A DNA stretch of 24,000 nt, from positions 826,020-850,019 of the forward strand of contig CAWBHB010000001.1 of assembly GCA_963788625.1 (NCBI GenBank), in the 5' to 3' direction. A program made the translations under genes and the position numbers. Below are positions 7,594 through 11,584 of this stretch, piece after piece. Source of the stretch: an uncultured Gemmatimonadales bacterium (GTDB lineage Bacteria; Gemmatimonadota; Gemmatimonadetes; Gemmatimonadales; GWC2-71-9). The notes beneath the pieces are model-generated. The model did no database searches, had not been told where the DNA came from, and saw nothing but the letters and a program-made list of their open reading frames with translations. Positions within the stretch are counted from its first letter, which is position 1; the number at the start of each line of letters is the position of its first letter.

Positions 7594-8331
7594 CTACTCC
7601 TGTTGGTAGGCAGCTACCTTGATGTCCTTAGGCCGGAAGATCAAACCACGCTCGAATGGATAGACGGTATCACCTTCGCGTTCGCACCAGATCAGCTTGG
7701 ACACCTTGGCCATCATGGCCCTAGCGGCTGGGAGGTTCTTCGGCTCGTTGATACAATAGCGGAATGAGCCAAGCACTATGTCCATAGCTGAACTGGCGTG
7801 CGACGCGTTGATGCAAGTGGAGGCGAAGAGCTTGATGCGGTCAAGGACAACGGGTGGGGCGTCCGGGAAGGTAAGGCCCTTGGAGAAGCGATCCGTGAGT
7901 ACTGAGTATTCTGCAGCCCCCGGCAGCCGGTCGATTGCGACAATGCCATCTGCGCCGATACGTGACAGGTAGTGATTGTACTTGCCTATTACATGGCTCG
8001 CGCCCCAAGAGACGAGATCCGAGAGAGGTGTGTTCTTGGCGATGGCGTGAAGAACGATATAGACAATGAACTTGCACTCAAGACGCACGCACAGGTCCAC
8101 GACGTCATTCTTGGCCTGAGTGCATTGATCAATTGAGATATGGTTGGGGCGGGCCGTGGTCTGGAACTTGAGTTCATCCGCGGGACGGTATCCTGCTGTC
8201 TTCCGGATCGCTGCGACCCCGTCATGAAGGGGGCCCAAGGAGTTGGGCGGTGCGATCAACCCTCCGTAGGCGAAAAAGCGCGCCTTCGGATCAGCGGGGA
8301 GGTTGGTCTCATCCGTGAAAAGGATATGCAT
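7594..8331 (-). CDS. DUF3800-family protein
   Basis: Intact 245-aa ORF starting MHILFTDETN (the DUF3800-type N-terminal acidic motif), then ELKFQT and later conserved-looking blocks. GC is lower than in the flanks. The start overlaps the stop of the upstream FRG gene by 23 nt. Confidence 0.7.
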   Translation of the reverse strand: MHILFTDETNLPADPKARFFAYGGLIAPPNSLGPLHDGVAAIRKTAGYRPADELKFQTTARPNHISIDQCTQAKNDVVDLCVRLECKFIVYIVLHAIAKNTPLSDLVSWGASHVIGKYNHYLSRIGADGIVAIDRLPGAAEYSVLTDRFSKGLTFPDAPPVVLDRIKLFASTCINASHASSAMDIVLGSFRYCINEPKNLPAARAMMAKVSKLIWCEREGDTVYPFERGLIFRPKDIKVAAYQQE

Positions 8332-8695
8332 TCAGCGCTGGATGAGTGGCACTATGGTCGCGTCCCGCTTCGTAGATATGCGGTATTGCGATCGTGTCTT
8401 CTAGGCCGCGGGCCAATCCGTCCAGGTCCTGAAACAGCGCCACTTGTGAAATTCCCATCGAGCGGAGACCTAAGAGCGCATCTTCGAGAAAGCCACCTTC
8501 GAGTTCGAGCGTCAACATCAGCTGGTCCGCGGATGGTAACCCCGTCTCCCTGAAACAGACATCAAAGGTATGCTCGAGGGTGGTTGGTGCTAGAAAAAGC
8601 CCCTGTTGGACAGCCAAGCGGTTGTTGAGCCGCATTGGATTGACCGCGAAGACACATGGCAGCTGCTTGCTGAAGAGCATCGCCTTAAGAAGCTC
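8309..8695 (-). pseudogene. FRG-domain protein, C-terminal fragment (gene split by IS3 insertion)
   Basis: ...LLKAMLFSKQLPCVFAVNPMRLNNRLAVQQGLFLAP... contains the FRG-type N-x-R-x-x-x-Q-x-G-x-F motif. The first 22 codons of the tracked ORF (8696-8761) are IS sequence. Confidence 0.8.
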
Positions 8696-8745
8696 TGAAT
8701 CGCCCCGGGATTGCCGGAGGCTCCAATTGTTGAGAGGTTGGAGCC

Positions 8746-9066
8746 ATGGACAAACGGACACGGTATTCCCCGGAGGTGCGGGAACGGACAGTGCGCCTGG
8801 TGCAGGAACACGCGCACGAGCATGGATCGCAGTGGGGGGCCATTCGATCGATCGCGACCAAGGTGGGGTGCACTGCGGAGACGCTCCGTCGGTGGGTGCG
8901 GCAGGCGGAGCGCGACGCGGGCCGGCGCCCGGGCCTGACGACGGAGGAGCAGCAGCGGGTCAAGGTGCTGGAGCGGGAGAATCGTGAGCTCCGGCGGGCC
9001 AACGAGATCCTGCGCAAGGCGTCGGCCTATTTTGCCCAGGCGGAGCTCGACCGCCGCGGGACGTAA
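8746..9066 (+). CDS. IS3-family transposase OrfA (HTH)
   Basis: [19 protein letters not shown]...[27 protein letters not shown] shows the typical IS3 OrfA helix-turn-helix and leucine-zipper end. Confidence 0.9.
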
Positions 9067-9974
9067 TGGTGGCGTTCATCGACGGCCACCGGGAAGTCTA
9101 CGGAGTCGAGCCGATCTGCGCGGTGGTGCCGATCGCTCCGTCGACCTACTACGAGCAGAAGGTGCGCGCAGCCGATCCGAGCCGCCTCCCGGCCCGGGCC
9201 CAGCGGGATGCGGCCCTCCAGCCGGAGATCGAGCGAGTGTGGCGGGCCAATCGGCGGGTCTACGGGGCGAAGAAGGTCTGGAAGCAGCTGCACCGGGAGA
9301 CGATTCCAGTGGCCCGGTGCACGGTCGCCCGGCTGATGCGCGACTTGGGGCTGCGGGGTGTGGTGCGGGGGCGTCGGGCCCGGACGACGATCCCCGATGA
9401 CTTGGCCGCGCGCCCTCAGGATCTCGTGCAGCGCGCCTTCCACGCCACCCGTCCCAACCAGCTGTGGGTCTCGGATCTCACCTACGTGGCGACGTGGCGC
9501 GGTTTCGTCTACGTCGCCTTCGTGATCGATGTCTTTGCCCGGCGGATCGTCGGCTGGCGCGCGACCACCTCGCTCCGGAGCGACCTCGCGCTCGACGCCC
9601 TGGAGCAGGCCCTCTACGACCGGGACCTGGATGGGCCGCTCGTGCATCACAGTGATCGCGGCGTGCAGTACCTCGCGATCCGCTACACCGAGCGCTTGGC
9701 CGAGGCCGGGATCGAGCCGTCGGTGGGGAGCCGGGGCGACTCCTACGACAACGCCCTGGCCGAGACCGTGATCGGCCTCTACAAGACCGAGGTCATCCGG
9801 CAGGCGGGCCCCTGGCGCGGCCTCGAGGACGTCGAGTACGCCACCCTGGAGTGGGTGGCCTGGTACAACACGCAGCGTCTGCTGGAACCGCTGGGGTACC
9901 GGCCCCCGGCGGAATACGAGGAGCAGTTTCACCGCACTCAGACTGCCCCAGTCGCAGAGGGTGCACTCACGTAA
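9066..9974 (+). CDS. IS3-family transposase OrfB (DDE/rve integrase core)
   Basis: 302 aa containing [18 protein letters not shown] and [21 protein letters not shown] (the DDE triad context). It lies in the -1 frame relative to orfA, with a TAATG stop/start overlap. Confidence 0.9.
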
Positions 9975-10004
9975 CCGGGTCTCCGGGAAAGCCGGGGCGA
10001 TTCA

Positions 10005-10475
10005 CTCCGGGTCCTTATCGGGTCTGGGGATGCGGTGATATTCCTCGCACCACCAAGCATCCAGCTTGGCGGCGGACCGGTTATTAAGGGATCGGTAGTC
10101 AATGCCCCACACCGTGCACGTATCTCCACGGTGCCGACGGGCCACAGCAAAATAGACTGCGATCCAGAAGGAGTAAGTCCAGTCAGTCAAGCGCGTTGGT
10201 GCTCCGTAATGCCTCATAAGAGCGAGCCATTCCAGTCTGCTCCTTGGGCTCGGGAGGCGGTGTGGGATCCGATCGTAGTGTCGCTTGAACTCCCGGAGGA
10301 GGTTGGCCTCTACGCGAGCAGCGGGATAGGGCTGCTGGAAACGGGTAACGGCCTTCTCAAGGGCCGGGGCGAGGGTCTCTTGTTCCTGCCCTCGAAAGGC
10401 CCAACGACGCCATCTCAACGCAGTGTCGAGATAGAGTCGCTGAACGGCTTGCCACGAGCGAAGGGTTCGCTGCAT
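10005..10475 (-). pseudogene. FRG-domain protein, N-terminal fragment (gene split by IS3 insertion)
   Basis: MQRTLRSWQAVQRLYLDTALRWRRWAFRGQ...LALMRHYGAPTRLTDWTYSFWIAVYFA carries the FRGQ and hG-x-PTRLLDWT-type FRG motifs. The premature TGA (10002-10004) is supplied by the IS terminus. Confidence 0.8.
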
Positions 10476-10540
10476 TGCTCCTCGCGCATCATAAGAGGCT
10501 CAGATGGCTGTGCTCTACAGTCCGCGCTTCACCTGCGGGA

Positions 10541-11101
10541 GCCAGGGCCCATGGTTGCGGCAGCTCCAGCAGCGCCTCCGGGCCGTCACGGAGGAGCGCG
10601 ACATCCTAAAAAAAGCCTTGGCATACCTTCGCGGACGACCAGAAGTGAAGTTCCACTTCATCGCCGCCCACCGCGCCGAGTTCCGCGTGCGGAGCCTCTG
10701 TCGGGTGCTCGGGGTCTCGGCCAGCGGCTTCTACCGGTGGACTCGGCGGCCCGCACCCGGGCTCCTCGTCCACTCCGATCGGGGCGGTCCGTACCTCGCG
10801 ACTCGCGTGCAGCAGCAACTCGCCGCGCATCGGGCCATCGCCAGCACGAGCCGGCCAGGCCGATCGCCTCGACAACGCGGTGGCCGAGAGCTTCTTTCAC
10901 ACCCTCAAGACCGAGCTGGTCTACCAGCAGCGCCATCGGACCCGCGAGGAGGCGCGCTTGGCGATCTTCGAGTACATCGCCGCCTTCTACAACCGCACCC
11001 GGCGGCACTCGAGCAATGGCTACCGCTCACCCGACGAGCAGGAGGCCCAGTACGTCGTCAGCAGGACTTAACCGCGTGTCCACTTTTTTGGGGCAACTTC
11101 A
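10541..11101 (+). mobile_element. Decayed IS3-family element: 5'-truncated, internally deleted and frameshifted transposase
   Basis: Remnants are LRAVTEERDILKKALAYL (OrfA end), EVKFHFIAAHRAEFRVRSLCRVLGVSASGFYRWTRR (OrfB start), LVHSDRGGPY and DNAVAESFFHTLKTELVYQQRHRTREEARLAIFEYIAAFYNRTRRHSSNGY. An A7G slippery run lies at 10608-10615. The right terminus ...ttggggcaacttca ends at 11101. Confidence 0.8.
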
Positions 11102-11119
11102 CTCAGGTGCAAGCGCTGG

Positions 11120-11584
11120 TTAGCCCGCACCGAAGACAGGAGCCGCTATAGTGGGGTGGGCCATACGCAGGCGAGCGACGAAGAAGATCATCGCCGCGTC
11201 GATCTCTCGTAATAGGCGAGGTACATTCCACCCCGCTCGGAACCGTGGGCGCGTAAAGCTCAGATGAGAGATTCGGCGGTTCAGGCGGTTGCGGATCTCC
11301 GTGCTGCGGAGATGGGGCAGGGCAAGCCGCGGTGTACTACCCAGAAAGTCACAGGCGAGGACGTCATCGGGGCGCGCTGAAGGGGCGAAGAAATCCCTTA
11401 GATTTCGGGCATGAAGGAGGAAGTCCTCTAGAAAGACGTTCACCAAGAGTTGATTGCGGTCCTCCGCCGCACGGTGGAGTAGCAGCGCCGAGGTGCGTGC
11501 CATGTCCCACTCATAGCGCAGGTCTCTGGCTACCGAGGTGAGGATCGCGACACCTCGTTTCGGGCGGGGCTTTTTGATCACCAT
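11120..11584 (-). CDS. Hypothetical protein with a weak HEPN-like signature
   Basis: Intact 154-aa ORF from ATG 11584. It looks alpha-helical and contains LLHARNLRDFF and EIRNRLNRRISHLSFTR (an R-x6-H arrangement). It sits directly upstream of the FRG-DUF3800 pair in the lower-GC segment. Confidence 0.5.
   Translation of the reverse strand: MVIKKPRPKRGVAILTSVARDLRYEWDMARTSALLLHRAAEDRNQLLVNVFLEDFLLHARNLRDFFAPSARPDDVLACDFLGSTPRLALPHLRSTEIRNRLNRRISHLSFTRPRFRAGWNVPRLLREIDAAMIFFVARLRMAHPTIAAPVFGAG

Follow-up and report, generated by a model that had tools for sequence, protein, structure and literature searches.

The stretch analysed here comprises 24,000 nucleotides of contig CAWBHB010000001.1 from an uncultured Gemmatimonadales bacterium (positions 826,020 to 850,019; the whole stretch is referred to below as the window), and the analysis centred on three co-directional open reading frames (ORFs) of the minus strand: 7594..8331, predicted to encode a protein of 245 amino acids, 8309..8761 together with 10002..10475, which are the two halves of a gene with an FRG domain, and 11120..11584, predicted to encode a protein of 154 amino acids (ORF154). 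The region from 7.5 to 11.7 kb is best explained, with a probability of about 0.8, as a decaying array of integron cassettes without a nearby integrase, and is similar to a cluster of attC sites lacking integron integrases (CALIN); this CALIN-like label is used because no integrase was found in the window. A cassette consists of a promoterless gene and an attC site, and the integron integrase inserts cassettes one after another. ORF154, the FRG gene and the 245-amino-acid gene would represent separate mobile cassettes that were brought side by side in such an array. An initial annotation had described the same three minus-strand genes as a candidate functional module of FRG, DUF3800 and HEPN-like genes; the ORF coordinates bore out its gene positions and orientation, and the comparison with other loci presented below did not bear out the module.

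On the minus strand, the elements follow each other in the order attC-like site B, ORF154, attC-like site A (split by a remnant of an IS3-family insertion sequence, IS), FRG gene, 245-amino-acid gene and a truncated terminal attC. The features are:

11615..11712, minus strand: attC-like site B, with R'' box GCCTAAC (11712..11706) and R' box GTTAGCC (11621..11615), upstream of ORF154.
11120..11584, minus strand: ORF154 cassette gene, with its TAA stop within GGCTAAC, the R'' box of site A.
11102..11124, minus strand: left half of attC-like site A (R'' box GGCTAAC and L''), in which the motif CTAACCAGCGYTKGCACCTGA of site B recurs without change and which the IS3 remnant cuts off.
10540..11101 (left boundary approximate), plus strand: IS3-family remnant, 5'-truncated and internally deleted, sitting centrally in site A.
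10513..10539, minus strand: right half of site A (L' and a degenerate R' box, TGTAGAG), which repeats the motif CCCGCAGKTGAAGCGCGGAC of site B; the FRG start codon follows 37 nt downstream.
10008..10475, minus strand: 5' part of the FRG gene, codons 1-156 (Pfam FRG, 4.3e-20).
8696..10004, plus strand: complete IS3-family element of 1309 bp, interrupting the FRG gene after codon 156.
8309..8695, minus strand: 3' part of the FRG gene, codons 157-284 and stop (alignment with 13 FRG homologues; profile hidden Markov model (HMM), 1.1e-34).
7594..8331, minus strand: 245-amino-acid divergent DUF3800-like gene, ending at a premature TAG (7594-7596).
7543..7593, minus strand: cut-off 3' tail of the 245-amino-acid gene, reading DLLAWINELLKSDGAA in frame up to the original stop TAG (7543-7545).
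7526..7551, minus strand: terminal attC, degenerate and truncated (R''-L'' half only), with R'' mutated to GCATAGC, abutting the ORF 6955..7515.

The attC-like sites were recognized by repeated motifs, box sequences and structure. The motif CTAACCAGCGYTKGCACCTGA occurs at 11103-11123 and again at 11690-11710, and the motif CCCGCAGKTGAAGCGCGGAC at 10520-10539 and again at 11622-11641, while none is expected by chance in either case. Applying the attC box consensus (R'' = RYYYAAC, R' = GTTRRRY), the boxes of site B (GCCTAAC...GTTAGCC) fit save for one deviation in R'. A covariance model (R1) was built from 16 attC sites, all from other loci and none from the window; in the RNAalifold structure of these 16 sites, the R/L stems and their unpaired bases were as expected, and 10 pairs carried compensatory changes. 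The best match of this model in the window was site B (11615-11712, minus strand, 17.4 bits), over the full model length, and a stricter attC scan (YTAAC...GTTAR), which worked on related loci, recovered the same site. When its two halves are joined across the IS remnant, site A forms a bulged hairpin (-13.5 kcal/mol, z = -3.3; none of 200 shuffles equalled it), in which the succession of 6 bp, bulge and stem is that of the attC sites at two related loci, L028 and L024. In addition, the consensus of the attC sites at L028 and L032, GYCTAAC-AWGCGCTTGAAGCTGACGGGCG...CGCCCGCAGCTTAAGCGCGATCC-GTTAGRC, is homologous in both halves to sites A and B of the window. The terminal half-site shows a 69% match to the left half of sites A and B and aligns with the R''-L'' part of the attC sites that lie behind the closest homologues of the 245-amino-acid gene (L028, L032 and L021). 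The stop codons of ORF154 (TAA, in GGCTAAC of site A) and of the original 245-amino-acid gene lie inside an R'' box, as they do in the homologous cassettes. Sites B and A and the terminal remnant are all on the minus strand like the ORFs, which gives at least two attC sites within less than 4 kb that enclose ORFs of the same orientation. A loose home-made attC scan (AAC...GTT with constrained folding) was dropped after it returned dozens of matches on both strands of the GC-rich window, and a four-way MAFFT alignment of intergenic regions was uninformative.

Several observations weigh against an integron origin of the region. The E-value of the site B match (about 0.009) is a rough one, as all E-values of R1 come from a short calibration, and its score is far below those of the training sites (17 versus 24-93 bits); of the 21 pairs modelled for the site, 6 are non-canonical, and minimum free energy folding without constraints gave a structure no better than that of shuffled sequence. 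The R' box of site A (TGTAGAG) and the terminal R'' box (GCATAGC) are both off consensus. A tblastn search of the 24-kb window with an IntI1 sequence returned nothing at E<=10, and the ORFs scanned within the window gave no Pfam match to recombinase domains; the adjacent intI that, with attI and a Pc promoter, would make a complete integron was not found by these searches. Between the FRG gene and the 245-amino-acid gene no clear attC was found, with weak residual similarity only; because of this, we infer and do not demonstrate that two cassettes have fused at this point.

The strongest support for the cassette origin came from the neighbourhoods of homologous genes. For the family of the 245-amino-acid protein, 25 other loci were sampled (17 from genomes and 8 from metagenomes), and their six-frame ORFs were scanned with profile HMMs. 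An FRG gene adjoined the family gene in none of the 25, and the only FRG gene present anywhere in them, in L004, forms a cassette by itself, which lies two positions upstream and is bounded by complementary R'/R'' boxes. The search from the other side gave the same outcome: the 245-amino-acid family was present in 0 of 3 FRG loci, roughly 18 loci of the ORF154 family contained neither FRG nor the 245-amino-acid family, and a narrow ORF154 alignment led to 16 loci without any FRG or DUF3800-like gene. The genes upstream of the 245-amino-acid family differ by locus and include an IS110 transposase, Ham1, an M1 peptidase, an outer-membrane protein and small unknown ORFs. At 8 of the 20 non-redundant loci, a GTTAGnn box is located 14-47 nt upstream of the start of the family gene and its reverse complement, nnCTAAC, at the stop, with complementarity of 7/7 bases in six loci and of 6/7 in two; complementary boxes at both ends of a gene are the signature of a single-gene cassette. 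The closest homologues of the 245-amino-acid protein (73% identity; L028, L032 and L021) are encoded in attC arrays, an IntI homologue (34% identity, 5e-44) is encoded about 7 kb from the family gene in L014, and fragments of intI are present in L003 and L006. FRG homologues were also found as single cassettes, bounded by GTTAGGC/GCCTAAC in L019 and L020 and by GTTAGGA/TCCTAAC in L004. A homologue of ORF154 (P0242, 62% identity) lies in the textbook cassette array of L024, in which near-identical attC sites separate every small ORF, and the boxes of its cassette (R' GTTAGCC, R'' GGCTAAC) are those of the ORF154 cassette in the window. Within this sample there was no case of the pair conserved as neighbours outside this genome, and each of the families occurs elsewhere as an independent single-gene cassette, which contradicts the functional module proposed initially.

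One of the sampled loci, L003 (8286-9714, Azonexus sp. IMCC34839), shows a truncated intI and an IS110-family transposase directly upstream of a cassette of the 245-amino-acid family with a perfect attC (CTCTAAC...GTTATGT). Some IS110/IS1111 elements target attC sites.

The junction between the FRG gene and the 245-amino-acid gene resembles that of an operon. The FRG stop (8309-8311) and the ATG of the downstream gene (8331) overlap by 23 nt, as initially described, and the exact 245-amino-acid sequence with the identical overlap is also present on a 1.3-kb contig of another read set. The overlap exists because the last 10-18 codons or so of the FRG gene run past the end of most homologues and into the next gene. 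The junction of about 55 nt is too short for an attC and shows weak similarity to the right half of an attC followed by the leader of related cassettes, including a common CAGCGC just upstream of the start. Most likely, the two genes were single-gene cassettes whose intervening attC collapsed and left the 23-nt overlap, and the apparent operon would have arisen incidentally, as cassettes accreted and an attC was lost.

The assignment of the FRG gene is firm. Excision of 8696..10007, that is, the complete IS and one copy of its 3-bp target duplication, brings the two halves in frame and restores a protein of exactly 284 amino acids, the length reconstructed in the initial annotation. This protein matched PF08867 above the gathering score (1.6e-19, 71 bits, cutoff 25), confirming the FRG domain, and the PADLOC profile PDC-S15 (PDLC04937; 254 positions) over amino acids 3-255 (1.4e-33). 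The closest homologue shares about 40% identity, and in the alignment with 13 homologues all family-invariant residues are kept. The gene was intact until the IS3 element inserted; today it is split by the 1309 bp of that element after codon 156. The Frg domain has been assigned to the ART (ADP-ribosyltransferase) superfamily and may act in prokaryotic immunity as a NADase effector (PMC9503650). PDC-S15 was encountered in the literature as an annotation label only. Judged from its sequence, the FRG protein is a putative NADase and a plausible single-gene anti-phage effector.

For the DUF3800 label initially given to the 245-amino-acid protein, profile searches gave a mixed picture. The window protein gave no DUF3800 match in Pfam even at E<=10 and no match of its own in PADLOC, NCBIfam or PHROG; PF12686 was reached by only 10 of 67 family members (best E 1.3e-6), and a precomputed PF12686 annotation was present in 1 of 120 homologues among those listed. 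Structure prediction with AlphaFold2 gave a model with a pLDDT of 91, for which Foldseek returned human RNase H2 (3PUF), the RNase HII of M. jannaschii (1EKE) and RNase HIII (E 6.5e-4 to 3e-3, TM scores 0.40-0.47). An N-terminal DE motif is present, and residues D7, E8, D134 and D184 are invariant in the family. A DEDD (DnaQ-like) exonuclease was considered for the "DET" motif, and the fold search favoured a type 2 RNase H. Because of the PF12686 matches in the family, the RNase H2-like model and the four invariant acidic residues, the protein is regarded as a divergent DUF3800-like putative nuclease with a predicted RNase H2 fold and a D-E-D-D constellation. The family is large (347 homologues, mostly of 260-267 amino acids) and is distributed over Gemmatimonadota, Acidobacteriota, Pseudomonadota, Chloroflexota, Planctomycetota, Bacteroidota, lineages of the candidate phyla radiation (CPR) and others. 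In Rfam searches, neither the window nor any of 14 related loci showed a DUF3800-associated RNA motif, and PDB sequence searches with profiles of the FRG, 245-amino-acid and ORF154 families gave no match. According to published work, retron-associated DUF3800 is RNase H2-like, with 3PUF and 1EKE as templates (PMC7736814), Cas12-associated DUF3800 has an RNase H fold (PMC10910872), and RNase H2-like DUF3800 proteins are found in retron type VII and Cas12a2/a3 loci (PMC7736814, PMC10910872, PMC13594972). The statement that FRG and DUF3800-type families are discussed in defence contexts is in agreement with these sources and with PADLOC PDC-S15 and PMC9503650.

ORF154 is a real gene that encodes a conserved all-helical protein. 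It has seven close homologues (38-62% identity) and a wider, unannotated family of 2704 cluster representatives at E<=1e-3, and its AlphaFold2 model is all-helical with a pLDDT of 87. No match was found in Pfam, PADLOC, NCBIfam or PHROG. It had been called HEPN-like on account of an R-x6-H signature, which is literally present (R100..H107), with R100 kept in 3 of 8 close homologues and 47 of 67 wider relatives, and H107 in 66 of these 67. A HEPN profile gave no significant match for ORF154 or for the 67 relatives, and a Foldseek search of the model against PDB returned nothing below E = 1; the signature is thus only partly conserved, and the HEPN label has no support from these profile and fold searches. 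The most conserved residues in the ORF154 family are H58, R60, H107, S/T109 and R112. Across the superfamily, Y24, E25, E53, H58, R60, D74, H107, S/T109, R112 and W119 were near-invariant.

Base composition and the condition of the genes agree with the initial description of an accessory, dispensable locus: it is of low GC content, horizontally acquired and eroded by IS elements. Without the IS DNA, the GC content of the island is 0.576, versus 0.648 and 0.640 in the flanks, confirming the lower value that had been estimated by eye; it is 0.564 in the 245-amino-acid gene, 0.548 and 0.600 in the two FRG parts and 0.604 in ORF154, and the two IS sequences reach 0.69 and 0.67. The island is bordered by a core gene of 67% GC (6955..7515), and the terminal attC is cut off where this core gene begins.

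Both IS3-family insertions reported initially were recovered, one complete (8696-10004) and one as a remnant (~10540-11101). The complete element has 24-nt inverted repeats (TGAATCGCCCCGG...) that are 88% identical, and is flanked by a CTC target duplication (8693-8695 and 10005-10007). Its OrfA matched HTH_Tnp_1 and its OrfB rve in Pfam, and OrfB scored 305 bits against the NCBIfam transpos_IS3 equivalog NF033516 (cutoff 160). The ALIL frameshift pseudoknot RF01497 was located at 9024-9140 with 109.9 bits. OrfA/OrfB with a -1 frameshift signal, the DDE (rve) transposase, the TG...CA inverted repeats and the 3-bp duplication together place the element in the IS3 family, and with its hallmarks perfect it is apparently a recent insertion. 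The remnant retains partial matches to HTH_Tnp_1, rve, rve_2 and rve_3 and a right terminus, ...GGGGCAACTTCA, at 11101. A CTC also adjoins this right end (11102-11104), which could reflect target preference or coincidence.

A nonsense mutation affects the 245-amino-acid gene, where the premature TAG replaces a conserved Tyr codon (TAT or TAC in the homologues). The tail beyond it still fits the near-invariant YDxLLxHINxLL C-terminal helix of the family, and because of this the sequence points to a recent mutation. Decay of the array shows in four lesions: the complete, apparently recent IS3 that splits the FRG gene; the older IS3 remnant within site A; the degeneration of the R' box of site A and of the terminal attC; and the TAC/TAT-to-TAG change in the DUF3800-like gene, which removes the conserved C-terminal helix. 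In its present state, FRG is probably without function and the DUF3800-like gene probably impaired.

Four other explanations were weighed against the decaying cassette array. In the first, the adjacency would be non-accidental, and the ORF154-like/FRG pair, the attC-less FRG/DUF3800-like unit or both would represent cassettes in the course of fusing, and integron arrays could in this way build multi-gene defence systems out of single-gene parts. If true, an ART-type NADase would have been coupled to an RNase H2-like nuclease. We regard this as unlikely, and a more modest version would hold only that integrons have spread the 245-amino-acid DUF3800-like family across more than 10 phyla, as a single-gene cassette for an uncharacterised anti-phage nuclease.

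A second possibility is that ORF154 and FRG form a functional pair, in which the ORF154-like domain would serve the FRG effector as a regulator, a sensor or an immunity partner, and that their adjacency was selected. The two genes are neighbours in the window, and one protein joins the two domains: P0369 (397 amino acids; L049, 1111-2304) has a full-length FRG (amino acids 3-239) followed by an ORF154-like C-terminal domain (250-390), and is surrounded by small co-directional ORFs with an N6/N4 DNA methyltransferase nearby. This fusion is the sole hint of a functional link; it is a lead of low probability and does not amount to evidence for a system. FRG is carried by only 1 of 148 representatives of the ORF154 family, and the ORF154-like domain by 0 of 120 FRG homologues; the occasional other fusion partners of ORF154-like domains are different (Sel1 repeats and a HicB-like antitoxin domain). 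Moreover, the flanks of about 18 other ORF154-family loci are free of FRG, an attC lies between the two genes in the window, and the ORF154 homologue of L024 is a stand-alone cassette with identical R'/R'' boxes. Taken together, a selected pair appears quite improbable.

Translational coupling of FRG and the DUF3800-like gene into a defence system of two genes, to which ORF154 might belong as well, was the third reading considered. It would account for the stop/start overlap and would suit two families that both occur in defence contexts (PADLOC; PMC9503650, PMC7736814), as well as relatives of the 245-amino-acid gene that lie near Type I restriction-modification (RM), Bub-like, KAP NTPase and AAA genes. 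Against it stand the absence of adjacent FRG genes at all 25 sampled loci, including L004 with its separate FRG cassette, the absence of the 245-amino-acid family from the three FRG loci, and the occurrence of both families as single-gene cassettes. PADLOC, in turn, treats FRG as a single-gene candidate, and the FRG tail that makes the overlap exceeds most homologues. Such a system is, in our judgement, very unlikely here. Also very unlikely is a generic genomic or defence island acquired by a non-integron route, with the repeats as unrelated intergenic elements, which would fit the window without integrase, the weak attC scores and the relatives located in non-integron islands (for example beside a tRNA in L001 and beside Type I RM in L022). 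It is opposed by the repeats, each half of which is homologous to genuine attC arrays with the same gene families, by the identity of the ORF154 cassette boxes with those of L024 and by the stop codons within R''.

Beyond 11.7 kb, the cassette array may possibly reach about 15.4 kb. The low GC content may run on to this point (12230-15351, minus strand), in a segment that contains tachylectin-repeat genes (12600..13457 and 14614..15351) and an M6-metalloprotease-like ORF (13243..14235); their frames overlap, which suggests a frameshift. A GCCTAAC box contains the stop of 12600..13457, a match of the attC model was obtained at 12439-12605 (minus strand, E = 0.013), and GTTAGGC boxes are located near 12088-12094 and 14354-14360. 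Two hammerhead-ribozyme-like motifs were observed in an ORF-free stretch between attC-like sites, on the strand opposite to the cassette genes: 11786-11849 (plus strand) matched Hammerhead_II with 22.8 bits, below the gathering threshold of 37, with a complete CGAAAC...GUC...CUGAUGA core, and 11993-12032 (plus strand) matched Hammerhead_3 over model positions 9-47 of 54 with 31.2 bits, below the threshold of 48.5. Elsewhere in the window, a thiolase is split over 571..1101 and 1343..2095 (minus strand), with Thiolase_N positions 4-133 and 217-259 on separate ORFs, suggesting a frameshift or pseudogene, and a large DUF6519 protein (17958..19640, plus strand, 6e-80) is followed by several long ORFs without Pfam matches.

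Compared with known systems, the decaying cassette array is closest to CALIN, reportedly defined by Cury and colleagues in 2016 (reference 54 of PMC5737381), and to sedentary chromosomal integron arrays. It shares with them ORFs of one direction that look promoterless and are separated by attC sites, the RYYYAAC...GTTRRRY boxes and bulged hairpin of those sites, the location of stop codons inside R'', cargo without known function, no nearby integrase and a GC content below that of the host genome. It differs in that the window keeps one reasonably intact attC (site B), one split by the IS3 remnant and a truncated terminal one, in that an attC is missing between two of its cargo genes, and in its clear decay. 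Insertion of IS3 elements can erode both the cargo and an attC site of an array. Cassette neighbours can also mimic an operon, even to the point of an overlapping stop and start, which is a caveat for defence-island mining based on adjacency.

At the level of single genes, the window FRG resembles the PDC-S15/Frg clade in its full-length HMM match and as a single-domain protein of about 280 amino acids like its relatives, and is unlike it in being interrupted by IS3 and in having a closest homologue of about 40% identity; PDC-S15 is itself a computational candidate only. The 245-amino-acid protein shares with DUF3800 of retron type VII, of the Cas12a2/a3 TPR-DUF3800 proteins and of Csx32 a DE motif at the N-terminus and a predicted fold like that of RNase H2, with 3PUF and 1EKE as best templates. 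In contrast to these, it is, like most members of its family, below Pfam detection, the QxxD motif of DUF3800 reads SAMD in it, and it stands alone, with no reverse transcriptase, TPR or Cas partner and no DUF3800-associated Rfam RNA motif nearby.

The cargo can finally be compared with bacteriophage resistance integron cassettes (BRiCs), which encode phage defence (Kieffer et al., bioRxiv 10.1101/2024.07.02.601719). The FRG, DUF3800 and ORF154 families are not mentioned in that paper, which describes single- and two-gene cassettes with homologues also outside integrons, and, unlike BRiCs, the genes of the window are disrupted. The likeness lies in cassette cargo from families that are predicted or suspected to act in phage defence, and the window genes are plausible candidates for single-gene anti-phage effectors. 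The rare fusion of FRG with an ORF154-like domain offers an experimentally testable lead. FRG, divergent DUF3800/RNase H2-like and ORF154-like families circulate as cassettes across many phyla, and because of this circulation they are reasonable candidates for phage-resistance screens of the BRiC type.

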